Source: Chloroflexota bacterium
Lineage (GTDB): Bacteria; Chloroflexota; Dehalococcoidia; UBA2247; RBG-13-53-26
Assembly: GCA_026389585.1 (NCBI GenBank)
Contig: JAPLHP010000036.1
Span: 41,366 to 105,365, forward strand
Length of the DNA: 64,000 bases
Direction of reading: 5' to 3'
Made by a program: the position numbers and the translations under genes. Positions 29,858 through 60,871 of this stretch are shown in pieces (position 1 is the first letter of the stretch; every line of letters begins with the position of its first letter). The notes under the pieces were generated by a model, which saw only the letters and a program-made list of their open reading frames with translations, was not told the DNA's origin and ran no database searches.

Positions 29858-30013
29858 GGGGTGGTTGCGGATTCAGGCTTCATTCTCGCCGTGACCCTGA
29901 TTTCTCTATAATGTCTGTAGCCATTGCAGACATGCTGTTGCAGATGTGCTTGACGAACACTCAAGTATGTGCTAGTCTCAGCACAAATCTAGCTGAAAAG
30001 GAGGGTTTAGACT

Positions 30014-32962: not shown

Positions 32963-33501
32963 GTTATCCCCCACGCTGACTGCGCATGTATTCTGTGCTC
33001 CGCCCCGTTGGGGGCAATGATAGACCACGGCAATATCCAGGTCAAACAACCTGCAATGGGCCACGCCCGGCATGCACGGTGCTGATGCAGAGGCTGGACA
33101 CAAAATGGCCTCGCAGGGACCACTCGAGGGGCATGAGCTTCCATCACATCCTCCATTTCCACAAGTCCCCGCCGGGATGATTGCTTTATAGACAAGAAGA
33201 AAGCCCAGCTTTTCGGATGGGCTTTTCTTATCTTAGAGTGGGGGGGGTGTCCTCTCTAAGACATCCTCAGTATAGGGAACGAAACTCCACCTTGCATTGG
33301 AAACAGATTAGAGAATGCTTAGAAAATGATTAGAAATTTTAGCTCACGAGGTCCGTCATGTTCAGGGATAGGGTGAAGGCGGGTATCCCTGCTTGTCTAT
33401 GAGGGGTTACCTGACAGAATGGCATCACCTATTTGCCAACTTGACAGACAGGACGATGTTATTCATACTATGGTATGAAACTGGTATGAAGAGGTGATGT
33501 C

Positions 33502-33759
33502 ATGTCCAAGACAACCAAGATTGCCATCAGCCTTCCGGAGGAATTGCTCGATGCTGTGGAGAGAGAGAGAGAGGAAAGCGGTGAGAGCCGCAGCCAGTTC
33601 TTCCGCCGTGCCGTAGAGATAATACTCCGTCATCGGCGGGAGCAGGAAATGAGCGAGCAGTACATCCGCGCCTACCAACAGGCACCTGAAACCAGAGAAG
33701 AGGTTACAGCCGCACGTCGATCCGCCAGTAGCATTCTGGGTGAGGAGCCCTGGCAGTGA
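33502..33759 (+). CDS. mazE: ribbon-helix-helix antitoxin (MazE/CopG-like)
   Basis: 85 aa, IAISLPEELLDAVEREREESGESRSQFFRRAVE RHH fold. Stop overlaps the mazF start. Confidence 0.7.
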   Translation: MSKTTKIAISLPEELLDAVEREREESGESRSQFFRRAVEIILRHRREQEMSEQYIRAYQQAPETREEVTAARRSASSILGEEPWQ

Positions 33760-34070
33760 GAAGAGGTGAGATATGGTGGGCAGAACTGGAACCGCCGGCC
33801 GGGCGGCGGCCCGTGGTGCTCCTGTCCCGTGATGAAGCATATGTCGTTCGCTCTCTGGTTATTGTGGCGCCAATCACTACCCGCATCCGCTACATACCTT
33901 CCGAAGTGCTTTTGGGAGTTGGTGATGGGATGCCCCAGGAATGTGCAGCCAATCTGGATACCATTACCACTATCCCCAAAGACTGCCTCCGTAGCCGGCT
34001 GGCCACCATAAGTGTGAAGAGGCTGAAGGAGATTGAGGCGGCTATTCACTTCGCTCTTGGTCTGGAATAG
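33756..34070 (+). CDS. mazF: MazF/PemK-family endoribonuclease toxin
   Basis: MRRGEIWWAELEPPAGRRPVVLLSRDEAY...ANLDTITTIPKDCL typical of PemK/MazF. Confidence 0.8.
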   Translation: MRRGEIWWAELEPPAGRRPVVLLSRDEAYVVRSLVIVAPITTRIRYIPSEVLLGVGDGMPQECAANLDTITTIPKDCLRSRLATISVKRLKEIEAAIHFALGLE

Positions 34071-34075
34071 GTGAA

Positions 34076-34131
34076 GGGGGGCAGACACAGCTTCCGCTGG
34101 GGAAGGCCATCCTTCAGCCAACCGACGCAGC
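34076..34131 (+). repeat. 52-bp direct repeat R1 (left boundary of HEPN-like/NTase cassette)
   Basis: GGGGGCAGACACAGCTTCCGCTGGGGAAGGCCATCCTTCAGCCAACCGACGCAG is ~90% identical to 35463-35518. Confidence 0.7.
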
Positions 34132-34169
34132 GTGCTGCTGCCGTCGATGATATCATGAGTGGGCACTGG

Positions 34170-34493
34170 TCACTCCTTCAGAAGCTCCGGGTGATTCTGA
34201 CGCAGCCATCTTTCCACAGACTGACGGAGGGTCTTGGCCAGACCTAGCATCTCCCCTACTTCTTGTTCAGAAACCATACCGATCATCTCATAATCACTGA
34301 TATTGCGTTTCTTGCGAAGCTTATCCAGTTTCTCAATTGTTGCACCATCGAGATGCATGGTGAAGGCCAGGGACTGGATAGTCCAGTAATGGTGACCTTC
34401 TTGTGGTGCCCTGTAGCCGCTGGCAGCCAGAGCCGCCGTAGCAGACTGGAGGGCAGCGTTATACGCGGTAGCAAACCTCCTGTCTGCGCTCAA
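34170..34493 (-). CDS. HEPN-like / NTase-partner small protein (putative toxin of MNT-HEPN-type pair; motif degenerate)
   Basis: 107 aa all-helical. RKKRNISDY resembles but does not exactly match the HEPN Rx4-6H motif. Sits downstream of the nucleotidyltransferase gene in the classic MNT-HEPN order. Confidence 0.4.
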   Translation of the reverse strand: MSADRRFATAYNAALQSATAALAASGYRAPQEGHHYWTIQSLAFTMHLDGATIEKLDKLRKKRNISDYEMIGMVSEQEVGEMLGLAKTLRQSVERWLRQNHPELLKE

Positions 34494-34565
34494 GTCGTGT
34501 ATCTGGGCATCCGCCAGATCGCGATCAGCTACCGCCAGAGTCGGACGATCTCGCGACTACCTGTT

Positions 34566-35198
34566 TTATGTGTTCTTAACCGCCCGTTTTTCAACCAGTC
34601 TTGCAAGCTCACCTTCATCACCTATGAGAAAAATCTTATCACCCTCGAGTACTATCTTCAGGAAGTGATGGTTCTCCCGCATTTTCTGCTTGAATTCGGA
34701 GGTAGGGTAGACAACCGGATTTACCTCTCTTCCCAGCGTCTTTTGAGACGGACTGATGAGTGAGACGATTTCCGAAAAGGTTGTCTTGCCTATTACCATC
34801 ATATCTATATCACTTGTTCTTTGTTCCGCTCCGCTGGCGATGGAACCGAAGATAAAGGCAACCTGTATCTTTCGCGCCGCCGGTCCTAAACTTTGCCGTA
34901 GCACGTCCGCCACTCCGAACGTCTTGGTTACAATACTCTTAAGCTCTGCGTAAATGGGACAACTCTTGTTTGCCCGGTAATAAACTTGCCTTCCCTGCAC
35001 CTCGCGGCTGATGATGCCGGTGTCCGTCAGGTTTTTCAGCTCCCGCTGTACCGTTCCGCGACCAGTTTTAACGGCATCCAGTATTTGTTTCGTATAGAAG
35101 GAGCTATCTGTTTGGCCGTAAAGAAATGCCAGGACTGCCTGCCGGGTTTTGCCGAAAAGGCCGCTGCATAATGAACTATCAGTCATATTCTTACCCAT
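34566..35198 (-). CDS. winged-HTH + minimal nucleotidyltransferase (MNT) fusion protein
   Basis: N-terminal ArsR-like wHTH (GKTRQAVLAFLY...GTVQRELKNLTDTGII), then NTase motif FGSIASG...SDIDMMV. Confidence 0.7.
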   Translation of the reverse strand: MGKNMTDSSLCSGLFGKTRQAVLAFLYGQTDSSFYTKQILDAVKTGRGTVQRELKNLTDTGIISREVQGRQVYYRANKSCPIYAELKSIVTKTFGVADVLRQSLGPAARKIQVAFIFGSIASGAEQRTSDIDMMVIGKTTFSEIVSLISPSQKTLGREVNPVVYPTSEFKQKMRENHHFLKIVLEGDKIFLIGDEGELARLVEKRAVKNT

Positions 35199-35245
35199 TC
35201 AGGGTATTATCTTACCCATTTTGGGTAACAAGGTCAAGTATTAGA
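35199..35245 (-). promoter_or_regulatory. promoter/operator of MNT operon
   Basis: Minus-strand TTGACC-17-TAAGAT with palindrome TTACCCAAAATGGGTAA between the -35 and -10. GGGTAAG repeated at the start codon. Confidence 0.5.
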
Positions 35246-35462
35246 CACCCCCTGCTTTTTTCAGCCGCGCCGATGTAGGACTTCCCCAGGCCTACCACAT
35301 CAGCAATGAAGGCTCCGCCAGGCTGGTATCGGGGCCATCCTGGCCATGGATGATAGGAGCCTGAAAGCCCGGTTGAGGCAGGCAAACGCCCTGGGACTGC
35401 CTCAGGCTATCATTTTGGCAAAGAAGAGGTAAGATCAGGCAGCGATACTGAGAGGCATGGGG

Positions 35463-35518
35463 AGGGGGCAGACATAGCTTCCGCTGGAAAAGGACATCCT
35501 TCAGCTAACCGACGCAGG
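35463..35518 (+). repeat. 52-bp direct repeat R2 (right boundary of HEPN-like/NTase cassette)
   Basis: GGGGGCAGACATAGCTTCCGCTGGAAAAGGACATCCTTCAGCTAACCGACGCAG. Confidence 0.7.
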
Positions 35519-35879
35519 ATGATGAGCAAACTCGGATTTCGCACCATGTGAATAGGCTAAAACTGAGTCCGGTCCGCGATAGTGAGCCACGCGGTTCAAT
35601 ATATAGAACTCCAGAACTGACCTTCAAGGCCGCTTTCGCTTTCCCCCTGAAGGCTCGGGCATTGTCCCAACGATATGCCTCCAGATAACAGAGCAAGCCC
35701 AGAGGCTTTGCCGCTTTCCTGGTGGAGACGGGGAAGAGTCGAAATCACATCTTCAATATTTGCAGCGGGGCTCTATCCCGTATGTGTCTAGTCGGACCTC
35801 ATCCAGATGGATCATACATTTCAAGCTTCTGTGTGATGCAACAATCTGGACTTTTGTTACCGCCTCTATTAAGTTCCAC

Positions 35880-36077
35880 ATCTCAGCCACCAACTGCCTT
35901 CTGAATGGTGGTGACGTGCTCTCTTTGCAGCAGATACTCGGGCACTCAAGCCTGGAGATGGTGCGGAGGTATGTGACGTTAGCGTCAGCCCGGGTCATGG
36001 TGCAACACAGGAAGTTCTCGCCGATGGACAGAATGAATCTTGGCAGAATGTGGCTGACTCGAGTGCCTCGCAACTAG
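35880..36077 (+). pseudogene. tyrosine recombinase/integrase C-terminal remnant
   Basis: LLNGGDVLSLQQILGHSSLEMVRRYVTLA matches the integrase C-terminal LGHsss.tT..Y.H region with catalytic Tyr. Upstream catalytic R/H boxes are degraded; only ~65 codons remain. Confidence 0.65.
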
Positions 36078-36952
36078 GGCAGGGACGCACGCAGAGCGGC
36101 AATGATTCGTTCTCCCTTGTTGGGGTCTTCACCAGCCGCACGCTTCTTGGCGACATATTCTTCGAGAATGCCCAGCGCTGCAACGTTTGAAACGTAGCGG
36201 AACAGGCCCGTTGCCCAAGCTGTCGAGCCTGGATTATGTGGATTCGTGTGATATTTCCAGAAATCGATCTCGTATCCTAGCATATCGTCCAGTGCACTGC
36301 TCTTGTCTCCAAAGATCTTGGTTTCTCTGCCAGGGTCTTCAACAAGCTTGGTGATTGCGAAAGCGCCCACCACAAAGCGGTCTCTGCGGTCTGGAGGCTC
36401 GGTGGTGAGAAGGGCTATCTTGCCTACTCTCGCGCCCCTGATCTTTCTGGGGCGGATCATCGTGCCATGTTCATCGGAGTCCCATCCCGCTGCGAAGTAG
36501 AAATCAATCAACGCTGTCGACTCATAGCATGGACTCCGTAGAGCTAGGTCCTGACCAACAAAATCTCTGCATCTGCTGAGTAGGCAGTACGGTCCTCCGA
36601 ATCTTAAATTGTGGACGTATGCTTTGTCACTGCATATGCCCTTGTATCCCTTATCATTCCAGTTGCACTTGAAGGCAATATTGCCATCCTCTTTCTTGCC
36701 AACTTCGCGGCGCTGCAATCCATCCTCGATTTCTCGCGCCAGAGTCTCGATCCTACAGCGCCGGTTCTCAACTATTGTCCGATGTATCTCATTACTGGGA
36801 TTGGCTGCTTCCTGGAGGCGTTGGAACGTCTCCTCCGCCGTTGAAAGGTGTTCTGCTGCCTGTTGGTAGACGAGACCATGGATCAGAGCCCCAATGTTGT
36901 TTAGTTGCTGATCCAGGGACTCGCGGATAGTGCGTAGATCGTCATTGCCCAT
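36074..36952 (-). CDS. hypothetical cysteine-rich protein, last gene of defense operon
   Basis: Start at MGNDDLRTIRESL overlaps the GmrSD stop. Cys cluster CNWNDKGYKGICSDKAYVHNLRFGGPYCLLSRC. No domain recognisable by eye. Confidence 0.45.
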   Translation of the reverse strand: MGNDDLRTIRESLDQQLNNIGALIHGLVYQQAAEHLSTAEETFQRLQEAANPSNEIHRTIVENRRCRIETLAREIEDGLQRREVGKKEDGNIAFKCNWNDKGYKGICSDKAYVHNLRFGGPYCLLSRCRDFVGQDLALRSPCYESTALIDFYFAAGWDSDEHGTMIRPRKIRGARVGKIALLTTEPPDRRDRFVVGAFAITKLVEDPGRETKIFGDKSSALDDMLGYEIDFWKYHTNPHNPGSTAWATGLFRYVSNVAALGILEEYVAKKRAAGEDPNKGERIIAALRASLP

Positions 36953-38858
36953 TAGTTCGTTCCGGATATGCCCACAACCTAACCGCCAAGTCGGCCAGTC
37001 TCTCGCTACGCGTCCTGATCGTAGTCTCGTTCCACACATCGTCATCGGAAAACTGCTGAAAATAGGAGTTGAGGATCAGCAGGCTCTGTTTTGTGATTTC
37101 CGCGCGCTTTGCCCTGAAGGGGCCGTTGCTGACTTCAGAATTGAGCGGTTGGGTCAGCAGTGTCAGGTTGCCGAGGCTGTGAATGGAAGACCAACGCCTC
37201 GATTCCATCTCCTTTTTTTCAGCCGCCTGATGTTCTGGGTAGGGCCATTCTTCTGGCTTGAACTTCTGGGGCATTATGTGCTCAATCGTCAGATTGTTGT
37301 TGATCGGCACAGGTGAAAGCTGCGATTCCTGACTTGGGGTCCGGTTGGCCAATTCGAGGGCAGTGAGAACCATGCGCATCCTCTTGGGGCCGAGGGAATC
37401 GTACAACGGTTCGTACATAAGGCTCTTTAGGAACGCCTCGTTGCCTGGCCAAACAGAGCTATCCCCCTCCAATGAAAGCAATTCGCGACGCACAGACACA
37501 TGACTCGGCATTCCTTCTCTGCTCAGCTTGGTAAGAAGACCAAGAAAAATGCGGTTGTAATTCTTGGGCGTCAGCCTGCATATGGCCCTTCGAACAATGT
37601 AGGACTCAATGTCAGCCAGTATGCGGGCAAACTCCTCTGCTGCTATCTGGTCTCGGTCTTCACACAGCCAGAGCATGAACGGGTAGACGGTTGTCGTGTC
37701 CAGTGCCCGAAGTCTCTGGGCCAGTATTCCTAGCCGACTGGTGTCATCTGCCTCCAGAAGTGAGCGGAATACTGAGCTCGACCGCTTGGCTGTTTCCAGC
37801 TCCAGTTCTAGGGAGCGCTCGGTCAACTCACCGTCCCACCACTCTTTGAATTCCTGGTAAAGATGTCCCATCTTGATCTCGTGACCTGCACGATACGTGA
37901 GATAGTGAAAGAAGAACAAGTCCAGCCGACTGCGGAACAACCTCCCTTGCCTTTCCTTTTCCTTCCAGAACTTGCCTGTCGACCCACCCGCTTCGTCATA
38001 ATCCTTCCACCATTGGTTGTATAGGGCATTCACATCCTTGTTCTGCCTACTGGCATACAGGAAGATGAAGTTCCTGATCAAGTCGGAGGGTTCGAGTGGG
38101 ACACCTCTATAGTTGAGGGTCTCGAATATCACCTGTGGATCGTCCTCCACGTCAAGTTGTATCTCGACGATTTGCACATAACGCATTACCGCTTCAAAGA
38201 GTAAGTTAGCGAGTTCTCTCATCGACTCTTGGCTAGACGTTTGGCTCGGTAGCGCCTCCTCCTCATCAATGCCACTTAGGAATCTCTTGATGACATCGTG
38301 GAAGTAGAAATAGGCTTCGACCAAGGCCGGGCGCGGGGGAACTAGCTTCTTCCGATGGAGCTTCTGCGGATATTTGGCTGCAAGTGCTTCGGCGGATCCT
38401 GCCTTCATCACATTCTTGACATCTTCTTGATAGGCATTCGTGGGCCACACCTTGAATTGCTCATCGGCGTTGTAGAATGGGCCGGGATTACCAGTTAGGC
38501 GGCCGAGCTGCATCTTGAGGTAGTCATCGCCCGACTCGACCACTGCATCTCTAAAGGCAGCCAGGAAGACTTGTAGGGTGAGCAATCGCTGTTGCCCATC
38601 TATGATTTCAGAAGCAGGCATTTGCCTGATCACGGTGGGCACCTGGCTCAGAACAATGGCACCAAGGAAATGCTTGCGAATTGTGTTCCTTGAAGCTCCC
38701 TTATGAACCTGCACCAACCTGGCCTGTTCCGCTATGTCACCCCAAAGCGGTTGCCATTGCTGGTCTTGTGTCCAAACATACCCACGCTGAAAAATCGGCA
38801 CCAGGTAGCGCCGCTGCCTTTCAAATAGATCGAATACGGTGATCTTATCTGTCTTCAT
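36942..38858 (-). CDS. GmrSD-family type IV (modification-dependent) restriction endonuclease, DUF262 + DUF1524
   Basis: 638 aa. N-terminal ParB-like DUF262 with IIDGQQRL motif. C-terminal HNH-like DUF1524 (NNNLTIEHIMPQK...NLTLLTQPLN). Confidence 0.8.
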   Translation of the reverse strand: MKTDKITVFDLFERQRRYLVPIFQRGYVWTQDQQWQPLWGDIAEQARLVQVHKGASRNTIRKHFLGAIVLSQVPTVIRQMPASEIIDGQQRLLTLQVFLAAFRDAVVESGDDYLKMQLGRLTGNPGPFYNADEQFKVWPTNAYQEDVKNVMKAGSAEALAAKYPQKLHRKKLVPPRPALVEAYFYFHDVIKRFLSGIDEEEALPSQTSSQESMRELANLLFEAVMRYVQIVEIQLDVEDDPQVIFETLNYRGVPLEPSDLIRNFIFLYASRQNKDVNALYNQWWKDYDEAGGSTGKFWKEKERQGRLFRSRLDLFFFHYLTYRAGHEIKMGHLYQEFKEWWDGELTERSLELELETAKRSSSVFRSLLEADDTSRLGILAQRLRALDTTTVYPFMLWLCEDRDQIAAEEFARILADIESYIVRRAICRLTPKNYNRIFLGLLTKLSREGMPSHVSVRRELLSLEGDSSVWPGNEAFLKSLMYEPLYDSLGPKRMRMVLTALELANRTPSQESQLSPVPINNNLTIEHIMPQKFKPEEWPYPEHQAAEKKEMESRRWSSIHSLGNLTLLTQPLNSEVSNGPFRAKRAEITKQSLLILNSYFQQFSDDDVWNETTIRTRSERLADLAVRLWAYPERTNGQ

Positions 38859-38910
38859 GAGTCATACACCAAGAAAATACTATGCAGAGAACAGCGTCGG
38901 CTGAGCCCGT

Positions 38911-39084
38911 CTACTTGCGCTTCGGAATCGTGTACGTTCCCTTTGCACCTTGATAGACGTTGAACTTCGACTTGCAGCTTTCGCACTCATAGCGCTTAAC
39001 ATCAGAGCTCCCGTACTTCCACGACCGAATGGGCTTGGTCGAGACAGGTCGACTACATATGGGGCAGTTTGTTGCAGTTACCAT
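38911..39084 (-). CDS. 57-aa zinc-ribbon protein inside the defense operon
   Basis: MVTATNCPICSRPVSTKPIRSWKYGSSDVKRYECESCKSKFNVYQGAKGTYTIPKRK. AAGGAGG RBS 7 nt upstream of the ATG. Below the ORF-table cutoff. Confidence 0.55.
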   Translation of the reverse strand: MVTATNCPICSRPVSTKPIRSWKYGSSDVKRYECESCKSKFNVYQGAKGTYTIPKRK

Positions 39085-39210
39085 ACAGACACCTCCTTGC
39101 CTGGTCCCTTATGGGTTGTCTACGTGACATATGGATGTATATTACTCTTCCTAAGAACAATTCTGCCAGTACCGCTCTGTAGGCCCGGATCGCGTTCTTG
39201 AATTCACTCG

Positions 39211-41976
39211 CTACCATGGCCGCATCAATGCTTCCCTCTTCGCAGCTCCGCTCAAGACCTGGGCACAGGACTCCCAGTCTGTGCGCTCGATTTTCTGATA
39301 ACGGATCTCGAACGGGTGCTTCTCAGGAACGGCATCAATGATGCGCTTGGCTTGCTCCTCCTCACCGATAGCAACGTCAATCCAGACATCTTCAAGTACG
39401 TCAGGAATCTGCCCAAACAGGCTAAATATACTCTGAAGCCTAATGGACAATAATTGGTGAACGCGATCCTCGACAGATCCCAAGTAGCGCATGTTGTAGA
39501 CGTATACAATATCGTTGAGCTGCCCGATACGCTGTATCCTACCTTTGCGTTGTTCGAGACGCGTGGGATTCCATGGAAGGTCCAGGTTGATGAGCGTGCC
39601 GAGTCTCTGAAGGTTCAGCCCCTCAGATGCGGCGTCAGTCCCGAGCAGGAGGCGGATCTGCCCATTACGCACGCCAGCCTTAATCTCCTCCCGGTCGACC
39701 GGCGTGAATGAGCCGTCCTTCCACATGCCGGATTTACCGCTGCCTGCGTAAATAGCGATTGGCTCGTCGGGGAAGTCAAGGACGAGTTCTTTGGCCAGCC
39801 ACTGCACTGAATCATAGTACTGGCTGAAGACGATGCACCCCTTATCGAGCCAGCTTCGCCCCCGGAGGCAATCAAGGACTACGGAGTACTTGGGGTCTCG
39901 CTCCTGATTGGCTTCAAGCGCCTTGACGAATCTTTCGAGCAATACCCGCTCCTCATCGGTCAGAGTCTTTAACGTGCTCAGGGATGCGGCAGGATTCTCA
40001 TCCTCGCTCTCCGCGTCCGAATCCAAGGTGAACGAGCCGAGGTCTCGCCACGACGCCAGCATGGTCTCGGCTGTGGCTTTGCCTGCCGCGATACTGCTGC
40101 CCACCCGGCGCAGGAGGAGCGTGCGAAGAAAACCTGAGCCCTTCATGCGGGCACCAAGCTGCCGACAGAACTCCTCAGCCAGTTGGTATGCATCTCTGAG
40201 GAAGAGGGGTAAGCGGATGGCATCCTCGTCGCGATCCCCTAGAAGTTCGACACGGATCGGTTTTAGGTACGGCTCGCCGGTTTCAGGGTCGATTGTCTCC
40301 TCAAGATACTTGCGGCTCCGCCGTACGATATGGCGGATGAACGGATTATGCTGGTCAACAAAACGAGGGAACATGGCGTGCACACGGGCCTTGTCGGGAG
40401 GATTAAGACGGTCCCAATCGCTGCCGCCGGCAGACACTTCCATGTCGGTCATTCCCAGCGACCGACGCAGGATCTCGAAATCTCGATGCTCGGAGGATGG
40501 GGGTAATGGTGTGCGGACCCATTGCCACATGTCCAGTTCATCCTCCAGCTGTCTCGCCGTGCCCAGTACCAGCGGCAGGGCTCTTTCGGCATGGTGCCAC
40601 TCACTCCATGCGCCACCAAGGACAGCCTCGCTACCACGGCTCAGGATGTCAAGGAGATCCCAAGCCTCCACAGGGCGGATCTGAACGGGTGTCGCAGTCG
40701 CCAGGAGCATGCTCTTGGTGTGCTTTGACAGTTCATAGAGGAATTGAAGCAAGTTGTTCGGATCAGGTTTCTCCCCGTCACGACCTTCGCCCAAGTTTCG
40801 ACGGCGGGCGTTGTGTGCCTCGTCAACGATGATGCATTCATAGTCAAGGTGTTTGAGGTGCTCAGAATCCTCGCACTGAAAGACGGCCCTTGAAGTAGGA
40901 ACAATGCCAACGCGCCGCGGACAATTGCGTATTGCCTGGGGACCAACAGAAGGGTACTCGACACCGCGCTCATCCACCCATTGCTTCCCTGTCCATACGG
41001 CGGAGGGCATGTCAAGCAGGTCGTTGAGCTCATCCCGCCACTGCCAGACAAGCGCTTTCGGTGCGAGCACCAGGATTGGTTTGGTGCTGCATAGGGCCAT
41101 CAGCTCAGCCGCCATGGCGAGCTGAATGGTCTTGCCAAGGCCGACCTGGTCGGCGAGAACAAATCGCGCTCCTCCGGGGCTATTGAGATGTGCATCGAAC
41201 GCCAGCTTCACGAAGAACTTCTGGTGCTCCCAGAGACCCGCCTGCTGACGATAGACCGATGCCTCGATAAAGACCGATGCAGGTGTTGGAGCCACTGGCA
41301 ACGTGCCTGAGGGCCTCGCCCAGTCCTCCACCGAACTTATGACAGAGCGTTTGCTGAGGCGAGCGACATCTTCGATGACAAATTCCGCAAGCGGCACCGC
41401 GGCATGGTGAGTCCATAGGGCATCAAACTCTTCTTGGACCCAGGCCACAGCCTCCGGCGATGAGTCTTCCCACAGAAGTTCGTAATTCAGTGTCCATGCT
41501 GACCGTGATTCATTGACGCTGCCCAAGAAGGCAGTGCGACTCCCATCAGCAAGCATGATTACCCCGGCCTTGCCGTGAACGAGCCCGAAGTACTCATCCG
41601 GGAGCACTCTCACTTGTAGCTTCCCGCTGCGCAGGAACTCGTGAAGACGCGAAAAGCGGTTACGAGTTGCCTCTCCCCCAGATTCGACCAGCGTCTCGGG
41701 ACGCGAGCTACACCACTCCTGTCGAACGGCTGCAGCGGCGGCTCGAGCTGTGGCAACGTCTTGAGGTCGCAGCCCCGAGTTGCACACGATGCGTACAAGT
41801 CCGGTCACGCTCTCAATGGCTTCGCCAGCCACCTCAAGGATAGATCCGGAGAAGTATCCGGCGATGCGGTCATAAGCTTGCGCACCATGCAGGCGGTCTG
41901 TGAAGAATGACCGGTCCAGTCGTTGCCGCCTGGAGGAAAAACGCCGAATTTGGCTGTGGGCAACAGGGTCGTTCAT
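39211..41976 (-). CDS. PLD-family nuclease domain fused to SNF2/DEAD-like helicase
   Basis: N-terminal HKD motif (HGKAGVIM...GSVNES). Helicase motifs: Walker A GLGKT, DEAH box IIVDEAHNARR, C-terminal helicase motif LLLGTDAASEGLNLQ, motif VI QRKGRIQRIGQ. Start taken at MNDPVAHSQ. Confidence 0.8.
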   Translation of the reverse strand: MNDPVAHSQIRRFSSRRQRLDRSFFTDRLHGAQAYDRIAGYFSGSILEVAGEAIESVTGLVRIVCNSGLRPQDVATARAAAAAVRQEWCSSRPETLVESGGEATRNRFSRLHEFLRSGKLQVRVLPDEYFGLVHGKAGVIMLADGSRTAFLGSVNESRSAWTLNYELLWEDSSPEAVAWVQEEFDALWTHHAAVPLAEFVIEDVARLSKRSVISSVEDWARPSGTLPVAPTPASVFIEASVYRQQAGLWEHQKFFVKLAFDAHLNSPGGARFVLADQVGLGKTIQLAMAAELMALCSTKPILVLAPKALVWQWRDELNDLLDMPSAVWTGKQWVDERGVEYPSVGPQAIRNCPRRVGIVPTSRAVFQCEDSEHLKHLDYECIIVDEAHNARRRNLGEGRDGEKPDPNNLLQFLYELSKHTKSMLLATATPVQIRPVEAWDLLDILSRGSEAVLGGAWSEWHHAERALPLVLGTARQLEDELDMWQWVRTPLPPSSEHRDFEILRRSLGMTDMEVSAGGSDWDRLNPPDKARVHAMFPRFVDQHNPFIRHIVRRSRKYLEETIDPETGEPYLKPIRVELLGDRDEDAIRLPLFLRDAYQLAEEFCRQLGARMKGSGFLRTLLLRRVGSSIAAGKATAETMLASWRDLGSFTLDSDAESEDENPAASLSTLKTLTDEERVLLERFVKALEANQERDPKYSVVLDCLRGRSWLDKGCIVFSQYYDSVQWLAKELVLDFPDEPIAIYAGSGKSGMWKDGSFTPVDREEIKAGVRNGQIRLLLGTDAASEGLNLQRLGTLINLDLPWNPTRLEQRKGRIQRIGQLNDIVYVYNMRYLGSVEDRVHQLLSIRLQSIFSLFGQIPDVLEDVWIDVAIGEEEQAKRIIDAVPEKHPFEIRYQKIERTDWESCAQVLSGAAKREALMRPW

Positions 41977-41983
41977 GGTCTCC

Positions 41984-44974
41984 TCATACGTTGTCCTGCC
42001 GGTTCCGTAACGCACCAGCTAGCAACGCCGCCGCCTCGGCATCCTTGTGCCAGTGAACCAACGAAGTGTGATGGCGCAGCGCTGCGAGAAACTCCAGTAT
42101 GTCGATCAGGCGGGCTCGGTTGCTGGCGTAGTCTTTGATCTCCGTGGTGAACCATGTGATGGCTTCGCGTGTGCTGTCCATTTCTGTGGTCATGAAGACT
42201 CCGAACAATGCGTGGCGCACTAATGTGTCGCCGAAGCCATCTCCACCAAGATCCTTACGGCCGAATTCGCTGGCGGTTTTGAGGCGAGTCTGGTTGGCCT
42301 TCGTGCTGGCCAGAAGCGGTTTGTACTCCCTGACGCCGAAGCCGCGGGCGAGTTCTTGATATACCCCATTTCGATACTCACCGTGGCTCTCCATCTCCAA
42401 ACCCTTGAGGTAAAGCCGCTCAACAGCGGCCAAAGATTTCCACAAATGCCTATCAATGCCACGTGGCACCAAGTGGTCGCAGGCGATGGCCACAGCCTTG
42501 CGGATGACATCTTCTACTGGCGATACTTCTCCGCGGGCGCGAGTGCGGGTAAGCTCGTAGTTGACATCTATCTCTTCGATATTCTTGGAGGTGAGCACGC
42601 GTAGGGCAGCAGCATAGGCGGCAAGCTGGTAGTCTGTGTCGGCAAAGCTGGGGTCTCTCTCGTCGTCCATGGCGAGCATCGAGTCGAGCTGGTGTCGGAC
42701 CTCTGTTTCGACCTCAGGGTACACTTCGTCAAGGAAAGATGCCCCCTGCGGGCTCTGCTTGCGGAGGATCAGCAGCACAGTGCCTTGCACATAGTTGCCT
42801 TCCTTAAGAGGTGAGGATGTCTCGGTGGCGATGCACCAAGCTGCGGTTACGCGCAGTCCTGCGGCCCACAGGATGAGAGCCAGATCAGCCCACACGCCAG
42901 CGTCCTGATGGGTGAACATAACAACCTGCAGGCCGTTGTCAGGCATGTGCTGAGCCATGTTGCGGTAGCAGTCGACCATCGCCTTGCGAAAGCTGTCGTC
43001 ACTGCCCTTCACCGCCAGAGCTCGTTTAGAATCTGCATACCATTCTGGAAAGAGTTTGACAAGGTGAGTCTCGTACCAAGCAAGGAAGTATTCGGAGAGT
43101 TCATCATATTGAATGGCATCACCGTACGGGGGATCGGTGATCCACAGATCAGATACGTAGCCGCACTGACGAGCGTCAAGTGCCAGCACTTTGCCGCTGC
43201 CCACCACTTGCGCCCGGTTGATTAGGGCCATCCAAGTTGTTTGGAGGGCTGGCAAAGGCCTGACCCCAAAGTTGGATAGAGTGTTCAAAGCTTGGTTGCT
43301 GAAAGTCTGTTCAGTCTTCTCATTTGCTGCATTGGAGTGCCAACGGCAAAGCCGTGAGTTCCAGTCACTGCACCGGCCTATTGCCAAGACAAGAGCTGCT
43401 TCTTCCGCCGGAGAAGCTCCGGCATCGGCCGCAGCAGCGGCAAGCAAGCCGTTGACGAGAAGTTGCCTCGGTGTGAAGAGGTGGTGCCAGTGTGTCCAGC
43501 CACGCGTCCGAATGGGCTCGTCTGTCTTCACGCCCGGCTCGATCCGGCGACTTGGGATGAAGCCCTTCTGCTGCCAGTCCGTAAAATGCTCCATCAGGAG
43601 ATCCAATACACGCTGCTCACGCGCAAGGTCCTTAGCTGTCGGTGAGCGATAGTACCGCGCGCTGTGCTCCTTCCCTCCCACGTCGGTCCAGGTGTCAACC
43701 CAGCGGATGCAGTATAGGCGCTCGCCGAAAACATCACCATCGCGTGGAACGATATCGCCATTCTCCCAGCCTCTGAGCAAGCTTCTACTCTCGCTGAAGG
43801 TTCCGCGTCCATCTCCCCGTATCGCGCGAATCGGGGTGGGGTGAGCTTTGCACTGCGGGCAAATCAGTTCTGATTCCTTGGCTGTACCTGCTCGGTGTGC
43901 GGCTTCCAGCGCCTCATCCAAGACGCCTTGGACTATCTCGAAATCATAGCAGCAACGCTTGTCATTTGGCACAAGGCGTGCAATCGTTCTGCTGCCCCTT
44001 CCAATAACCCAGGAGGATGCAAGCGGTATGCGCCAGTTGCACTCGGGACACGTGACCTCGACACAATACAAGTAGGCATCGGCCCGCCAGCGTCGGCCCG
44101 TTTTGGGATCAGGCTCGCTGTGTTCAATGCCCCATGCGGTCACTTGGCGATCAACTTGTTCGAAAACAGTTCGCTGGATTCTCTGGACTCCTTCTGCTAC
44201 CTTTGGCACACCCCCCACGATCTTCAACGCGGCCCACGTAAGCAGTGCCGCCACCGGGTTCAAGTCGCTGCCATAGGCCTCACAGCCAATGCGGGCCGCC
44301 TCAAAGGGAACCGACCCGCCACCACAAAAGCAGTCGCCCACCCGAGGGACATGGCCAAAGCGGTTCTGGCCAAGCTCGGCAACTAAGTCAGCAAGCGAGG
44401 CGGCATGGGTACCAAGATGGGCATTGATAATCCGCCACGATTCGGCAGATGGTCCATCAACTTGCTCCGGGCGGACGCAGTATTCCTGCTGTTCGTCGTA
44501 CGATAGGCCGAGGAAAACTCGATGCTGCAGCTCATCCTTCTCGTGGCTTGTAATGCCTTTCTTGAGTTTGGGTTCCGTATCCGTAGAGCCAAGGTCGAAG
44601 TAGCGGCTTTGATCTGTGGGCCCAAGACATCGAAACAACTTGGCCGCCGGTATGTTCTTTGACTTGCGGCCGAGCATTCCGTCTTCATCCATAGTCATCA
44701 GTCGTAGGAAGACTTCTCGGTCTCGGGCTGCGTCAGTAGTTGCGGGCAAGAGCAGACCCAGGATTGTGGCTCGGCAGAGCACAAGGGGTTTACGCCCCCA
44801 CCACTTCCCCAGGCCGGTCAAAGTCTGGCTCTGTTTTGCGGTCCGCTCAGCATAACTCTCCTTCGAGAGCTTCGAGACGGGAAACTGAGTCTCAATTAGG
44901 CATAGCTCGGAACGCTGGAGCGATGCCGTGTGTTGTGCCGTTTCTGTGACTGTGGTCGGCATGTCTCTATTCAT
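41984..44974 (-). CDS. DUF1156 (COG1743) Zn-ribbon-containing DNA amino-methyltransferase
   Basis: 996 aa. N-terminal ETQFPVSKLSKESYAERTAKQ...GKWWGRKP is DUF1156-like. SAM-MTase motif IV WITDPPYGD. Cys clusters CPEC...CPQC. Confidence 0.75.
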   Translation of the reverse strand: MNRDMPTTVTETAQHTASLQRSELCLIETQFPVSKLSKESYAERTAKQSQTLTGLGKWWGRKPLVLCRATILGLLLPATTDAARDREVFLRLMTMDEDGMLGRKSKNIPAAKLFRCLGPTDQSRYFDLGSTDTEPKLKKGITSHEKDELQHRVFLGLSYDEQQEYCVRPEQVDGPSAESWRIINAHLGTHAASLADLVAELGQNRFGHVPRVGDCFCGGGSVPFEAARIGCEAYGSDLNPVAALLTWAALKIVGGVPKVAEGVQRIQRTVFEQVDRQVTAWGIEHSEPDPKTGRRWRADAYLYCVEVTCPECNWRIPLASSWVIGRGSRTIARLVPNDKRCCYDFEIVQGVLDEALEAAHRAGTAKESELICPQCKAHPTPIRAIRGDGRGTFSESRSLLRGWENGDIVPRDGDVFGERLYCIRWVDTWTDVGGKEHSARYYRSPTAKDLAREQRVLDLLMEHFTDWQQKGFIPSRRIEPGVKTDEPIRTRGWTHWHHLFTPRQLLVNGLLAAAAADAGASPAEEAALVLAIGRCSDWNSRLCRWHSNAANEKTEQTFSNQALNTLSNFGVRPLPALQTTWMALINRAQVVGSGKVLALDARQCGYVSDLWITDPPYGDAIQYDELSEYFLAWYETHLVKLFPEWYADSKRALAVKGSDDSFRKAMVDCYRNMAQHMPDNGLQVVMFTHQDAGVWADLALILWAAGLRVTAAWCIATETSSPLKEGNYVQGTVLLILRKQSPQGASFLDEVYPEVETEVRHQLDSMLAMDDERDPSFADTDYQLAAYAAALRVLTSKNIEEIDVNYELTRTRARGEVSPVEDVIRKAVAIACDHLVPRGIDRHLWKSLAAVERLYLKGLEMESHGEYRNGVYQELARGFGVREYKPLLASTKANQTRLKTASEFGRKDLGGDGFGDTLVRHALFGVFMTTEMDSTREAITWFTTEIKDYASNRARLIDILEFLAALRHHTSLVHWHKDAEAAALLAGALRNRQDNV

Positions 44975-44988
44975 GGTTCATCCCGAGT

Positions 44989-45732
44989 CTATTGAGAGCG
45001 GCTCGAATCTGACCCAAAGCCCAGCTGATTCGCCGCTTTTGCTCGCCGCGTTTTCCGTGACTTCCTGGCACTCCCTGTTGAGCTATGGGCTGTGCCCTCT
45101 TGAGCTGTAAGCTGGTCGGATTCGCTCATTGACTGGCTCACTAAGCGGAAGAACTCTGGCACAATCGGCTGATCGGGAGGACGGTCAGAGACCGGGTTCT
45201 CAGTCAGGGCAAATCGCACTGCCTTGCGCCAACCTCGCCCTCGGCCATCGGCGTAGCTGCCGGTAGCCGCCGCCGTCATGGTGTATAGCCACCAGCGCTC
45301 CTCGGGTGTCAGTCCCCGCCAGTTGGCGACCGCCGTAGGTATGAGGGCAGGGTCAGCATCTTCAAGAGCCCAGGTGAGGAGGGTCAGTTCTTTACCCAGC
45401 ATGCGGCTAACCGTATTGTAACCAGCTTTCCAGCGCCCCGGACGTTTGCCCTCTCTCTTGAGGCGCAAGTTGAACTCCGCGCGCACCAAGTCGGCGACTG
45501 CGTTCCATTTCGGCCGATCAAGTTGGCTTTTCACCTGGCCATCAAGACGCTCACCGTAGTGAACCGAATCGGCGATGCGATCGGGATCCCACGACAGATG
45601 TTCACTGATTGTGATGGGTTGCGTCGTGCCAGCAGGAATGTGAACCAGGAAATGGGAAACTGACTGGTTGGGGTCAAAGCCGAAAGTGTCGACAAGCACG
45701 TCCGGACTAGGTTTCTGGTTACGTTCAGCCAC
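44989..45732 (-). CDS. DUF3780-like protein (inferred from position between DUF499 and DUF1156 genes)
   Basis: 247 aa. Position and size match the DUF499-DUF3780-DUF1156-helicase arrangement predicted in defense islands. Family call relies on synteny, not verified motifs. Confidence 0.45.
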   Translation of the reverse strand: MAERNQKPSPDVLVDTFGFDPNQSVSHFLVHIPAGTTQPITISEHLSWDPDRIADSVHYGERLDGQVKSQLDRPKWNAVADLVRAEFNLRLKREGKRPGRWKAGYNTVSRMLGKELTLLTWALEDADPALIPTAVANWRGLTPEERWWLYTMTAAATGSYADGRGRGWRKAVRFALTENPVSDRPPDQPIVPEFFRLVSQSMSESDQLTAQEGTAHSSTGSARKSRKTRRAKAANQLGFGSDSSRSQ

Positions 45733-48700
45733 TATTGCCTCACCTCTGAAGCCTGATAGTCGGTCTTGTTCTCATTGATCCAGTCGAGGAACCCCTGCCC
45801 GCGCTCAAAGTGGAGGGCCGATACCTCGATACCGAGTTGACCTTCGTTGGTGAGCTTGCGGACGGCATCGGCGGCCTCCCGCAGGGCATCCGCACCAAGT
45901 TGGATCTTCTCATGCAGAGTGAGCTCAGCCCAACGGTTGCCCGTCACGCTGACCTTGATTCCACTCATGGACATGGGATGAGCCTTCAGTCTCTCCAGGA
46001 AACCATACGACTCGAGCGTGGTGTTAAACTCATGACGCCTGGTCCACGTCAGGGGTCTATCGGGGTCAATTTGCTTGTCCGTGTCGGGTCTGTCCCAAAG
46101 TATCTCGGCAGTCAACACTTCCGAGACGACGTCGCCGTGCATCGCTACCGCCAGGACGAACCGCGTGCCACGATGGACCTCGAAAGGCTCCTCGTAAGTA
46201 CCACCGGAAACCTTGGGGTCTGAGCCATCCGTGGTGTACTTGATCTCGGTGCGCCCGTCCTTGTTGGGGGCAGCTCGGAGCTCAACAATCTTGTTCCCTC
46301 TCTTGCCCGCGTAGGTCTTGTATTTCAAAGTCAGGCGGTTGCGCCACTTGTGATCCGGGCCAGAAGCATGCGTTCGCGTAGAATCCACGGCCAGAAACGA
46401 GACCTCCATTTCGCTCGTTCGATAAAGACCCTGCTCGACCTTCTGGGAGGCTTCCGTCGCATCAGCGCCGACTTCGGCGTACACAGTGTCGCCGTGCACA
46501 GGCGTAACCTTCAACTCCACCTCTCCAGTATCTTCATGGCGTGAGCGCTCCTGTATCTGCACCGAAGTGGTCTTGGGTGGTGGTGGGTTCCGGTCAACGT
46601 AGCCCGCCGGATCCTCGCGCCAGACCTCACGGTATACAAGATCATCCTTGATAGCATCGAGCGCCTCGCGACGGTGCCACTGCCACTGAGGGTTCATGGC
46701 AGCACGTCGCTTGACTTCGCTCCACAACATAACGGGTGTCGTAAACAGACGCGCTTCAATCTTCTTGCGGAATGTATCGCTCGTAACGTCTTCGGTGTAC
46801 TTCTGCTTGTCCTTCAAGACCTGGATGACCTGGTCCTCGCCGTTGTACTTGTTCCCCTCGTACTTCATCAGGAAGTCAGCAGAAAGGAAGACATCCGTAT
46901 CATTTTGACGGAAGGGGTAGTACAGAGTCGAGAATGTCTCTTTGACCGCTGAGAGGAACTGGCCCAGAATGCGATCCCGGAGTTCATCTGCCTGCTTGAA
47001 CTGAGGGTCCGTCTGAGGAGTCTTGTCCGCCTCCATTTCGTCGAGAATATGTTGGATAGCCTTGAGCCGCTTGGCGCTGTCGATTAGTGTGTCGAAGGTA
47101 TTGCGCGAACCCGTCAAGACGGCGATACGATTCTTGAAGGGAGTCTGCCCGTAGAATTGGACGAGTTGGGGGTTCAGACCCTGGCCAACGTAGGGCTCGG
47201 AGATGACGAGAGAGATGCGATCCTGGAACACTTGAATCTCGTCGATGGACGGCAGCACCAGTACTTCCTGATAGCACCAGCCCATCGGCGGTTTGAAAAG
47301 GGTCTTGAGGCGCTCTCTGAGTTCTTTCAATGCCTGTTCTCGGACATATGCAGTGGACAGCGACTCCAGCTTCGCGACGAGGTTCTGGACGTTCTTGAAG
47401 AACAGCCTGCCGTCACGATTGGAGTGGAGGTACCAGGCTGCAGTGGCAAGCTTCTCGAGAATATCGCTCTTGAGACGGGCCAGATTCCTACCGGGCGCGC
47501 AGAGGTAGCCCACCACTTCCGGGATGGTTAGGCCGACAACAGCATTCGGGACATTGGCCAGCGAAGACATGAAGATGAGCCGACATGCGTCCTGCGTGTC
47601 ATTCGTGCCCAGGTTCTGATCCATGACTTCGGCGACTGCTTTCCCCTGAGATGCAATATCGTGGGCCACGGCGTTGTCCAGTGTGGGGTTGATCTGGCGG
47701 ATTTCCGACAGGGTCTCGGGGTCGTTCAAGTCTATGTTGTGCACGCCAATGAGATACACCTTCTCCGCTTCCCCCGATTGCCACAGTCGCGAGGTGATGA
47801 TGCGCATCAGGCGGATCAGTGCACGGGTCTGCTGGAATCCGGGATTTTCACGAAAGCGTGCATACAGGTCTTTGATCGAAGGGTGGAACGGGTAACTGTC
47901 TTGGATGAACTGCGCAAACTTCTCTGGCGACTGGGCCGTAATGTCCATCTGTCGCGCCTCGCGGATGGCCTTGGCATATGCTTGGGCGACCTCTGTCACC
48001 TCCTCGTTTGGTGGCAGGTCCTTGAACAGGCGCTTCCGCAGGATGTGATAGAACTCATCTGTGTTGATTTGAACCGGCGTCAGGTTCATCGAGTGCCTTT
48101 GGGCCTCGCTCTGAAGCTGCTTCAGCAGGTCGGCGATCTGGGCACTAGCTTCGGCATAAGTGCCGACAAGGTCAGTCAGCACGATGCACACGTTGGCTAG
48201 CTCTTTCTCTGCGACTGCTTCGAAAAGGTTGGTCAGTGCTGTGGCCGTGACGTGCGAAAGATCTGAGTTGCCGACGGCGATTGACTTGGCGTTATCGAGG
48301 TAAGGTGGCAGTTCGTCGAGGAGTATCAGGGTAGGCTTGCCTTTGAGCAGGTTTATCCAGGCTGAGCGGCCCGGAGCCTTCAGCGGCGAATAGTAGTCCT
48401 TGAAGTCGGCATGTCTACCTATCTGACGCGCTATCTCTCCCCAGATACCGTGTGGAACGTCGGTTTCGCGGCCTGAGAAGGCAATGACTCGCACGGGTGG
48501 CAGCGCCTTCGCGCTTGGCAGTCCGGGCAGAACAGCTGCACGGAGTTCCGGATGCTTCGCCAACAGGCCAAGAGTGATGAGGTTATGTGTCTTGCCCCCA
48601 CCCATCGCCTGGGTGAGTTTGAATACTGCCTGCTCCGAACGACCCTCAAGTCGCCGGAGGGCCTCCATAAGCAGAGTTCGCATCCCGTCCGTGACATAGT

Positions 48701-48833
48701 TCTCTTCGAGGAAGGCCCTAGTGTCGATCTTGTCTTCGGCCAGATGCATCAGGTTGAGAACGGTGTCGCGACGAGCCGCGTCGAAGACGCTCTCGCGTGG
48801 TGTGCATAGGGTCTTGATCGATTTCATTTGCAC
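45732..48833 (-). CDS. DUF499 / BrxC-PglY-like P-loop ATPase
   Basis: 1033 aa, Walker A AMGGGKTHNL near the N-terminus, Walker B ILLDELPP. Size and architecture match DUF499. Confidence 0.7.
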   Translation of the reverse strand: MQMKSIKTLCTPRESVFDAARRDTVLNLMHLAEDKIDTRAFLEENYVTDGMRTLLMEALRRLEGRSEQAVFKLTQAMGGGKTHNLITLGLLAKHPELRAAVLPGLPSAKALPPVRVIAFSGRETDVPHGIWGEIARQIGRHADFKDYYSPLKAPGRSAWINLLKGKPTLILLDELPPYLDNAKSIAVGNSDLSHVTATALTNLFEAVAEKELANVCIVLTDLVGTYAEASAQIADLLKQLQSEAQRHSMNLTPVQINTDEFYHILRKRLFKDLPPNEEVTEVAQAYAKAIREARQMDITAQSPEKFAQFIQDSYPFHPSIKDLYARFRENPGFQQTRALIRLMRIITSRLWQSGEAEKVYLIGVHNIDLNDPETLSEIRQINPTLDNAVAHDIASQGKAVAEVMDQNLGTNDTQDACRLIFMSSLANVPNAVVGLTIPEVVGYLCAPGRNLARLKSDILEKLATAAWYLHSNRDGRLFFKNVQNLVAKLESLSTAYVREQALKELRERLKTLFKPPMGWCYQEVLVLPSIDEIQVFQDRISLVISEPYVGQGLNPQLVQFYGQTPFKNRIAVLTGSRNTFDTLIDSAKRLKAIQHILDEMEADKTPQTDPQFKQADELRDRILGQFLSAVKETFSTLYYPFRQNDTDVFLSADFLMKYEGNKYNGEDQVIQVLKDKQKYTEDVTSDTFRKKIEARLFTTPVMLWSEVKRRAAMNPQWQWHRREALDAIKDDLVYREVWREDPAGYVDRNPPPPKTTSVQIQERSRHEDTGEVELKVTPVHGDTVYAEVGADATEASQKVEQGLYRTSEMEVSFLAVDSTRTHASGPDHKWRNRLTLKYKTYAGKRGNKIVELRAAPNKDGRTEIKYTTDGSDPKVSGGTYEEPFEVHRGTRFVLAVAMHGDVVSEVLTAEILWDRPDTDKQIDPDRPLTWTRRHEFNTTLESYGFLERLKAHPMSMSGIKVSVTGNRWAELTLHEKIQLGADALREAADAVRKLTNEGQLGIEVSALHFERGQGFLDWINENKTDYQASEVRQ

Positions 48834-51196: not shown

Positions 51197-51576
51197 GTTG
51201 CAAGTAAGCCTCCAGTTGAAATTGTGTTGATCTTGAACTAGTGATGACCTGTGTTAGGGGTCGGTTGCGCCTACACGCAGGACATTGAAGTCCATCCTCG
51301 GGCTTCTATGAGTTGACAAGACCACCCCACCAAGTGCATCCATTAGGAAGTCCTTGTATATTGGCATGCCATATTCCACATCGTCACGCGCTGTCTCTCA
51401 AGAGATGCTCCTTTCGGAGCAGCGACAGGGTCATTGGGTAATGCCAGTCTTTGGATGAAACAGGCTTCCGCAGGCTGGGTGTTGACCAGAAGGAGACAGA
51501 TTTGATCCTAGAAGAGATTACTGGGTAAGCCGAAATACGTGGATTCAGAAGCATAACGTTCTACATCCCCCACTGA

Positions 51577-51690
51577 GATTGCTTCGCTGCGCTCGCAATG
51601 ACACCGGCGGCTAACCCGCAATGACACCAGCGGCCAACCGGAATGACACGGCACACAAACCCCTGAGCCATAAGCGAGAAGAAATACGAT
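51577..51690. repeat. dispersed repeat family copy C (head plus three ~22-bp GCAATGACACCGGCGGCTAACC units)
   Basis: GATTGCTTCGCTGCGCTCGCAATGACAC head, then tandem units as in 55764-55975. Confidence 0.65.
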
Positions 51691-58659: not shown

Positions 58660-58693
58660 TTGGCCTCCTTGTTTCCTCAGGCAGCCGTTCCTG

Positions 58694-60801: not shown

Positions 60802-60871
60802 CGTTCGCGCCCTCCCTGCTGAAGTATTGACATGACCGGTGCAACCAGGCACCAGTCAGCGTAACAACCGA

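Follow-up and report, generated by a model that had tools for sequence, protein, structure and literature searches.

Decayed copies of the hisS 3′ end bracket a nucleotidyltransferase/HEPN-like gene pair at the edge of a strain-variable island in a Chloroflexota bacterium

In a stretch of Chloroflexota DNA of 64,000 nucleotides (the window), a two-gene nucleotidyltransferase/HEPN-like pair is bracketed by two direct repeats, R1 and R2, and the locus raises the question of what these repeats are and how they came to stand there. A preliminary description of the window had proposed that they were attL and attR, left by site-specific insertion of a small toxin–antitoxin (TA) cassette, or else the border of a larger integrative element, now decayed. 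The repeats, described there as about 90% identical, were confirmed. A repeat search of the window aligned positions 34077–34137 with 35464–35524, with 53 of 61 positions matching (87%), and BLAST gave 90.7% identity over a 54-nt core. A degenerate form of this 54-mer, allowing up to three mismatches, was found at two sites only in the 64 kb and at none in 100 shuffles, and no third repeat copy was detected in the window by a sensitive search.

The gene layout given in that description, with an RHH antitoxin and MazF on the plus strand and a wHTH-nucleotidyltransferase with its partner on the minus strand, was borne out. The plus-strand genes form a compact mazEF module (33425–34070), with a promoter-like site at 33441–33469 recognized by promoter scan. 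The RHH antitoxin gene (33502–33759, plus strand; Pfam RHH_1, 31.9 bits) and the MazF/PemK toxin gene (33756–34070, plus strand; Pfam PemK_toxin, 63.2 bits) overlap by 4 nt, and the pair qualifies as a MazEF type II TA system. As a rule, TA pairs serve addiction or defence.

The wHTH-nucleotidyltransferase gene (34566–35198, minus strand) is intact and encodes an ArsR-like wHTH joined to a minimal nucleotidyltransferase (MNT-type antitoxin). The protein scored above the cut-offs for PF18765 (Polbeta, 35.3 bits) and PF01909 (NTP_transf_2, 23.7 bits), and below the cut-off of 60 bits for the NCBIfam MntA model (26.8 bits). More than 1600 homologues were found, mostly 70–78% identical, with plasmid occurrences at 41–45% identity; no exact-protein record was found for this 210-aa protein or for MazF. 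The region upstream of the gene (35199–35238, minus strand), with a promoter-like site at 35237–35209, contains two direct TCTTACCCATT repeats, which are kept in the relatives L050 and L051 and are probably an operator.

The HEPN-like partner gene (34170–34556, minus strand) is N-terminally disrupted, with in-frame stops at 34557–34559 and 34566–34568, where the N-terminus should be, and a TTG at 34493 as the first usable start. Its product is weakly HEPN-like (PF05168, 17.8 bits, E = 0.0037, below the cut-off of 22) and reads RNISDY where Rx4-6H is expected. An intact version of the partner, of 147–151 aa, is found in L051 and gave no Pfam or PDB match; the copy in L050 is without its C-terminal part. 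A single-sequence AF2 model of the HEPN-like protein had a pLDDT of 43.7, too poor for use. Next to this gene lies an ORF stub (34140–34166, minus strand) comprising the first 9 codons (MPTHDIIDG) of an ORF that in L051, to the left of the partner gene, runs for 108 aa. In the window this ORF is ended by R1, and its remaining part was not found anywhere in the 64 kb.

The repeats were said to flank the gene pair exactly. They do bracket it in direct orientation, but the spacing is loose, with 32 nt from the end of R1 to the HEPN-like stop and 265 nt from the MNT start to the start of R2. The integrase C-terminal remnant reported beyond R2 was also supported. About 350 nt after R2, the last ~65 aa of a tyrosine recombinase are encoded at 35877–36077 (plus strand). 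Residues 40–76 of this stub match Pfam Phage_integrase (PF00589; 23.3 bits, E = 5.9e-5, below the cut-off), and its identity was confirmed by homologues carrying PF00589 at 67–84% identity. Short C-terminal fragments made up the whole set of stub homologues (37/37), and no further integrase pieces were present in 35527–35876.

R1 and R2 each derive from the end of hisS, the gene for histidyl-tRNA synthetase: they are degenerate copies of its final ~60 bases, stop codon included. When the repeat core was compared with 185,579 species genomes (one per species), the single match corresponded to the last codons of a real hisS gene in a related Chloroflexia MAG. Both repeats align to the last 61–69 nt of hisS with 80–90% identity. 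R1 (34071–34137, plus strand) is a separate hisS-end copy of 67 nt that includes the stop-codon region and matches the end of the real hisS at 87–90% identity in L039 and L040 and at 80% in L048. It adjoins the mazF stop, as had been noticed, but without the short gap originally assigned, since the homology to hisS begins already at 34071, the first base past that stop. R2 is real as a repeat but not free-standing: it is the last 61 nt (35464–35524) of a longer hisS 3′ pseudogene fragment (about 35299–35526, plus strand; 217–228 nt) that matches hisS codons 347–417. This fragment is 84–85% identical to real hisS ends over 217–223 nt (35310–35526) and 62% identical to HisS by tblastn (E = 3e-15), and it is damaged by a premature TAG and by deletions of 1, 2 and 3 nt. 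The hisS gene itself is absent from the 64-kb window, in which cysS precedes the Zn-ribbon gene at the place where relatives have hisS, with a cysS/Zn-ribbon junction at 29946–29950 that may be genuine or an assembly chimera.

With the sequence being plainly hisS coding sequence, it is very improbable that the repeats are functional non-coding elements such as an integron attC, a REP or MITE, a structured RNA or a terminator of the TA loci. Between mazF and the HEPN-like gene, which are convergent, a GC-rich hairpin of 9 bp (CGACGCAGC...GCTGCCGTCG) can be formed by R1 with the sequence downstream of it; however, R2 has no equivalent hairpin, and neither repeat folds better than shuffles (z-scores of −0.9 and −1.8 for R1 and of +0.5 and +1.7 for R2, both strands folded). 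An integron attC was rejected, as no significant or common hairpin exists in R1 and R2. A REP or other generic interspersed repeat, named in the preliminary description as the finding that would speak against its proposal, was likewise rejected, given two copies only in 64 kb, none outside hisS in the genome collection, and a species-genome match that is real hisS. In addition, tRNA and Rfam scans at the repeats gave no match, nor did scans of viral contigs with the repeat core, the hisS-fragment core and the nucleotidyltransferase protein, and no DNA match was found in the phage collection.

The 5′ part of the window fragment is orthologous to hisS fragments in L039 (93%), L040 (84%) and L051 (96–98%), the comparison with L039 and L040 covering window positions 35310–35398. 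The fragments of the window, L051, L039 and L040 have common bases that differ from every real hisS sequence, and all of them thus go back to a single origin. R1 and R2 are each other's closest relatives and have three derived bases in common against all real hisS sequences; R1 keeps a hisS-like GGTGAAGG start that R2 has lost.

The position of these fragments was compared among relatives. In four of them (L001/L039, L040, L004 and L048), which match the window at 91–97.5% identity over the block of Zn-ribbon, histidine-kinase and response-regulator genes, hisS stands just upstream of the Zn-ribbon gene. The gene order there is hisS, Zn-ribbon, histidine kinase, response regulator and hisS fragment, hisS lying ~4 kb from the fragment where this is visible; the fragment after the response regulator was seen in the two relatives whose contigs extend past that gene, L039 and L040. 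In both, the response-regulator gene is followed directly by the 5′ part of the hisS fragment, then by variable DNA (in L039 4 kb that include an RT, in L040 1.2 kb that include an HNH gene) and then by the AAA_18 kinase block. Strain-specific DNA starts at or within the fragment. Each of the two has one hisS fragment, from which the R part is deleted, and neither TA pair; their junctions differ.

Two further relatives, L050 and L051 (samples ERZ27247850 and ERZ27313109), carry the genes of interest in other arrangements. L050, which is 96% identical and has the mazEF module (absent from L039, L040, L002 and L003), shows mazF joined to a C-terminally deleted HEPN-like gene, with the MNT gene present. 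It has lost 34078–34362, R1 included, between two copies of GGTGAAGG, R1 itself beginning with one of them (8 nt), and it diverges right after 35238, where an MTase-HNH pair takes the place of the hisS fragment and R2. Between 34776 and about 35400, L051 matches the window at 95–98% identity; this stretch comprises the wHTH half of the nucleotidyltransferase gene, the promoter, and the hisS fragment, whose 5′ junction is the same in both. Over 34144–34775 the identity falls to only 57–76%, which points to an allelic replacement of the nucleotidyltransferase domain and the partner gene.

These arrangements bear on the proposal that the 1.3-kb nucleotidyltransferase/HEPN-like pair is a small mobile cassette acquired by site-specific insertion, with R1 and R2 as its attL and attR, which may still be mobilisable in trans like a CIME. 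The direct orientation of the bracketing repeats agrees with it, as does the L051-homologous block (34144–35460), which is nearly exactly the inter-repeat stretch, and the wHTH-nucleotidyltransferase family is very widespread, also on plasmids. We nevertheless regard the proposal as unlikely. The match to L051 continues past the block into the hisS fragment, where the L051 contig ends. The R2-bearing fragment is older than the cassette, because L039 and L040 have its 5′ part beside the response-regulator flank without mazEF and without the nucleotidyltransferase/HEPN-like pair. Relatives with the cassette and without the flanking repeats had been foreseen as evidence to the contrary, and this was found in part, L050 carrying the cassette without R2 and L051 having an ORF in place of R1. 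The empty site that the preliminary description had suggested looking for, with one repeat copy and no cassette, was found in precise form in none of the relatives examined, and mazF, a single repeat and then the integrase stub occur together in no relative. In addition, the foreign ORF within the bracketed stretch is truncated, the HEPN-like gene is disrupted, and the repeats are 13% diverged, so that any event that produced them must be old.

R1 and R2 cease to resemble hisS at one and the same place, to within about 3 nt, just after the stop codons (GCAGCATGATGAG), and neither is followed by DNA similar to the hisS downstream flank. At the real hisS of L040, an adjoining 1.1-kb replacement bearing a methyltransferase gene begins at the same hisS position. 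Variable DNA was found to join hisS at one fixed point, near GCAGCATGATGAG, in R1, in R2 and in this replacement. The 5′ limits differ, with 67 nt of hisS in R1 against about 220 nt in the R2-bearing fragment. In the fragment of L039, the R portion has been lost by an internal deletion, after which about 30 nt resemble the hisS downstream flank, with a score that was reached by 1 of 2000 shuffles; a flank of this kind is as expected of an attR.

The main alternative, possible if rather doubtful, is that the repeats arose by a local duplication independent of any recombinase. R1 would then be a piece of the hisS fragment or of hisS itself, a filler or a leftover of unequal or microhomology recombination from the time when the mazEF and nucleotidyltransferase/HEPN-like blocks were joined, and would never have had an att function. 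Rearrangement by microhomology is active at this locus, as seen in the L050 deletion between the GGTGAAGG copies and in the TGAAGGC present on both sides of the 1.9-kb segment that the window has in excess of L039 and L040. The mutual closeness of R1 and R2, the interruption of an ORF by R1 and the absence of an intact recombinase also speak for such a duplication. It leaves unexplained, however, that R1 and R2 end at the same hisS position with unrelated DNA beyond, and that R1 has the hisS-like start lost from R2. Nor does it account for a like multiplication of the 3′ end of a second gene at the other edge of the island.

This island is the strain-variable region 33382–58680, which lies between the conserved response-regulator flank and a conserved AAA_18 kinase gene. 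It measures ~25 kb in the window, against 4 kb between the same flanks in L039 and 1.2 kb in L040. Its left edge is a 43-nt segment (33382–33424) common to L002 and L003 and absent from L039 and L040: homology to L039 and L040 stops at about 33381, and L002 and L003 follow the window sequence to 33424 and then diverge. An interpretation of this segment as a diverged hisS piece was not adopted, its sole signal being an 11-mer common with the L048 hisS that was reached by 10 of 500 shuffles. The region contains both TA pairs, the integrase stub, GmrSD, an HD protein, an HTH-IrrE protein and a corrinoid methyltransferase set, and it also carries a PLD-helicase/DUF1156-MTase/DUF3780/DUF499 defence system.

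At the far side, the conserved AAA_18 kinase/dCMP deaminase/dodecin block resumes at 58681. The 3′ end of the kinase gene, with about 18 nt past its stop, is present three times: as the native end (58681–58814), as a scar at 53491–53624 (plus strand) that is 88% identical to the native end, and as a shorter copy at 55694–55769. The three copies bracket gene groups of 2–3 kb that have no integrase, and together they form, at the opposite island edge, a second series of gene-end scars that mirrors the first. Three ORFs of ~382 aa beside these scars were considered as integrases and rejected, one being an HTH-IrrE protein, one UroD-like and one without a family match. Neither a third hisS scar nor the native hisS-downstream flank was found at the far island end.

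Taken together, the two series could be given a wider meaning, in which the interval between the ancestrally convergent hisS and AAA_18 kinase genes is a two-sided landing pad and the TA pairs, the defence genes and the corrinoid methyltransferase set are each bounded by copies of core-gene 3′ ends. These short groups without an integrase would still be gained and lost through recombinases acting in trans, an integron- or CIME-like cassette economy that uses gene ends, not attC, in uncultured Chloroflexota. We consider this joint reading improbable as a whole.

The explanation that we favour as the most economical, with slightly more confidence than doubt, is that islands targeting the 3′ end of hisS accumulated in tandem and that R1 and R2 are copies of their attachment site surviving as relics. 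It is seen directly that the repeats derive from the end of hisS, that they stand where a strain-variable island begins and that an integrase stub lies next to R2; we infer an integrase origin of the repeats and an order of events. The second suggestion of the preliminary description, in which the repeats mark the border of a larger integrative element in decay, agrees with hisS-end copies at the start of a 25-kb variable island and a tyrosine-recombinase stub adjoining them.

Several observations argue for relic attachment sites. The recombinase remnant 350 nt past R2 reads away from the hisS fragment, which is the usual layout of target gene followed by int. The other island edge has the same signature, in the form of three kinase 3′-end copies. 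In four relatives, hisS stands upstream of the same Zn-ribbon/histidine-kinase/response-regulator block, and in the two with longer contigs a hisS fragment follows the response regulator, with strain-specific DNA starting at or within it. The stop-codon junction is fixed in R1, R2 and the L040 replacement, the L039 fragment has an attR-like flank, and the sole species-genome match to the repeat core is a real hisS 3′ end. The bases specific to the fragments, three of them in both R1 and R2, would fit an arm borne by the integrating element rather than copies of the resident gene. The ssrA islands of Dehalococcoides are a precedent in the same phylum (PMC3146451).

Our confidence in relic attachment sites is no higher because intact hisS forms no boundary in the window, where cysS stands in its place, because R1 and the R2-bearing copy have unequal 5′ limits, and because the right junction of R1 is secondary, truncating an ORF that in L051 is longer. 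A further reason is that no intact integrase linked to hisS was found: among the loci examined there was no precise empty site and no full-length integrase next to hisS, and five loci with homologues of the stub contained decayed integrases that were not beside hisS. In addition, homologous integration of the Campbell type or local template switching could give a similar picture.

If the repeats are relic attachment sites, the following course may be proposed. In the ancestor, hisS and the AAA_18 kinase gene would have been convergent, and the space between them would have become a landing site. Islands with tyrosine recombinases, carrying a hisS-like arm and targeting the stop-codon region of hisS, would have integrated successively at its last bases; because each integration would have left one more partial hisS 3′ end, the islands would have piled up in tandem. 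The elements would then have decayed, the integrase being reduced to a stub, the HEPN-like gene losing its start and the neighbouring ORF being cut to 9 codons, while microhomology deletions and allelic exchange would have shuffled the remaining pieces. The wHTH-nucleotidyltransferase/HEPN-like pair would thus be the decayed cargo of one element, caught between two scars and no longer mobile.

The repeats are most likely scars of a gene end in a hotspot of island insertion, a feature of an ordinary kind, here with a target gene for which our literature search returned no report as an integration target or att site. If the proposed origin is true, hisS is to be added to the housekeeping genes at whose 3′ ends islands insert; in other respects, the locus is an ordinary relic, with no new mechanism. 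Gene-end scars of this type are useful markers for delimiting islands in MAGs.

Among known systems, the gene pair resembles HepT/MntA (HEPN/MNT, type VII) in that a Pol-beta-type minimal nucleotidyltransferase gene is followed by that of a small all-helical partner, the two genes overlapping in the intact L051 version. It differs in the N-terminal ArsR-like wHTH of the nucleotidyltransferase and in the partner, which falls below the Pfam HEPN cut-off, has the RNISDY motif and, in the window copy, is without a proper start. With integron cassettes the locus has in common small TA cassettes, similar bounding repeats and a tyrosine recombinase nearby; unlike them, its repeats are hisS coding fragments without a conserved attC hairpin, and no attI, Pc or IntI signature was seen, the stub being too short to include the region where the extra IntI domain would show.

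A further comparison is with islands that use the 3′ ends of protein-coding housekeeping genes. One example, SGI1, lies in the 3′ end of trmE (PMC8409611) and forms tandem arrays (PMC2297512), and such islands would share with the present locus the use of a conserved-gene 3′ end as attB, a direct repeat at the far boundary, an integrase next to the target and TA or defence cargo, the integrase here being a stub. CIMEs, as in the ICESt1 family, arise by integration, decay and then further integration into a remaining att site, and accretion with subsequent decay into CIMEs that have no integrase has been reviewed (PMC5704250). In comparison with CIMEs and ICE–IME accretion, the att copies considered here would be relics, and the R1 boundary is secondary, truncating an ORF.

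In Dehalococcoides, also of the Chloroflexota, directly repeated copies of the ssrA 3′ end mark the limits of tandem islands, many of which have no integration genes (PMC3146451); those without an integrase were interpreted as CIMEs or fixed remnants (PMC3146451). In both cases a strain-variable region follows a single-copy essential gene, and multiple direct repeats of its 3′ end bound successive islands (PMC3146451). The target here is the protein-coding hisS instead of the tmRNA gene, the repeats are 60–220 nt long against 20 bp, and the recombinase remnant is of the tyrosine type, whereas the Dehalococcoides islands have a serine recombinase (DsiB). Unlike the ssrA islands, the present locus has only two scars, both diverged, and hisS is no longer adjacent to them. 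If relic attachment sites are the right explanation, this would be a second case in the Chloroflexota, besides the ssrA islands of Dehalococcoides, in which tandem accretion and decay have built a hotspot of defence and TA genes.

Comparison of window 34144–35400 with L051, a related contig which carries the NTase/HEPN-like cassette, showed an abrupt change of identity at about position 34776, within the wHTH-nucleotidyltransferase (NTase) gene. On one side of this point, comprising the wHTH part, the promoter and the hisS fragment, the two sequences were 95–98% identical, and on the other, comprising the NTase domain and the HEPN-like partner gene, the identity was 57–76%. This step indicates that close strains have exchanged alleles of the half of the TA locus that lies towards the toxin. 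Two direct repeats of TCTTACCCATT (35190–35225) overlap the start of the NTase gene and a promoter-like site, and are probably the operator for the wHTH domain.

The 8-mer GGTGAAGG was found at three junction-related sites inside 1 kb: at the left boundary of the variable DNA (33375–33382), at the start of the hisS 3′-end copy R1 (34071–34078), and at the deletion endpoint within the HEPN-like gene of L050, the second cassette carrier (34360–34367). About two copies of this 8-mer are expected by chance over the whole window.

The integrase stub (35877–36077) had 37 homologues in the database, with 67–84% identity, and every one of them was likewise a short C-terminal fragment (56–121 aa). Those in longer contigs (L043–L046) were located in frameshifted or uncalled stretches; most known copies of this integrase lineage seem to be pseudogenes or to lie at the ends of contigs.

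The AAA_18 kinase gene has its 3′ end present in three copies, all in the same direction, at 53491–53624, 55694–55769 and 58681–58814, with 82–88% identity and reaching about 18 nt beyond the stop codon. They enclose gene groups of 2–3 kb, namely unknown ORFs of 297 and 383 aa and a B12-binding/UroD-like methyltransferase set, and no integrase was found near these copies. One of these kinase-end scars is directly adjoined by one copy of an interspersed element, present at 51575–51651, 55762–55859 and 60869–60909 and in L050 at 249–382, which begins with GAGATTGCTTCGCTGCGCTCGCAATGACACC followed by two or three tandem units of about 22 nt (GCAATGACACCGGCGGCTAACC).

At 29946–29950 synteny is broken: cysS lies upstream of the Zn-ribbon (DUF5679) gene in the window, and hisS in four relatives, including the 97.5%-identical contig L048. 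This breakpoint is either a true rearrangement or a MAG contig chimera. The corresponding spacer of the relatives contains REP-like elements. Two other intergenic short repeats of the window, 59904–59962 (matching L001, L004 and L040) and 10155–10272 (matching L048 and L049), were 85–97% identical to the variable hisS-to-Zn-ribbon spacer of these relatives and resemble lineage-specific elements of the REP or MITE-like type. A further breakpoint within this neighbourhood was observed with L002, a 96%-identical metagenome contig, in which (2700–4950, compared with window position 30740) a methylmalonyl-CoA mutase gene, not the Zn-ribbon gene, follows the histidine kinase.

The variable region also contains a defence cluster (36942–48833). 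Behind it, at 49248–51193, lie a dGTPase-like HD protein and an ORF with weak similarity to DarG. The cluster starts with a GmrSD type IV restriction enzyme, and then PLD_Helicase, DUF1156_MTase, DUF3780 and DUF499 are found, all being full-length PADLOC matches with E values of about 1e-44 down to 1e-291.
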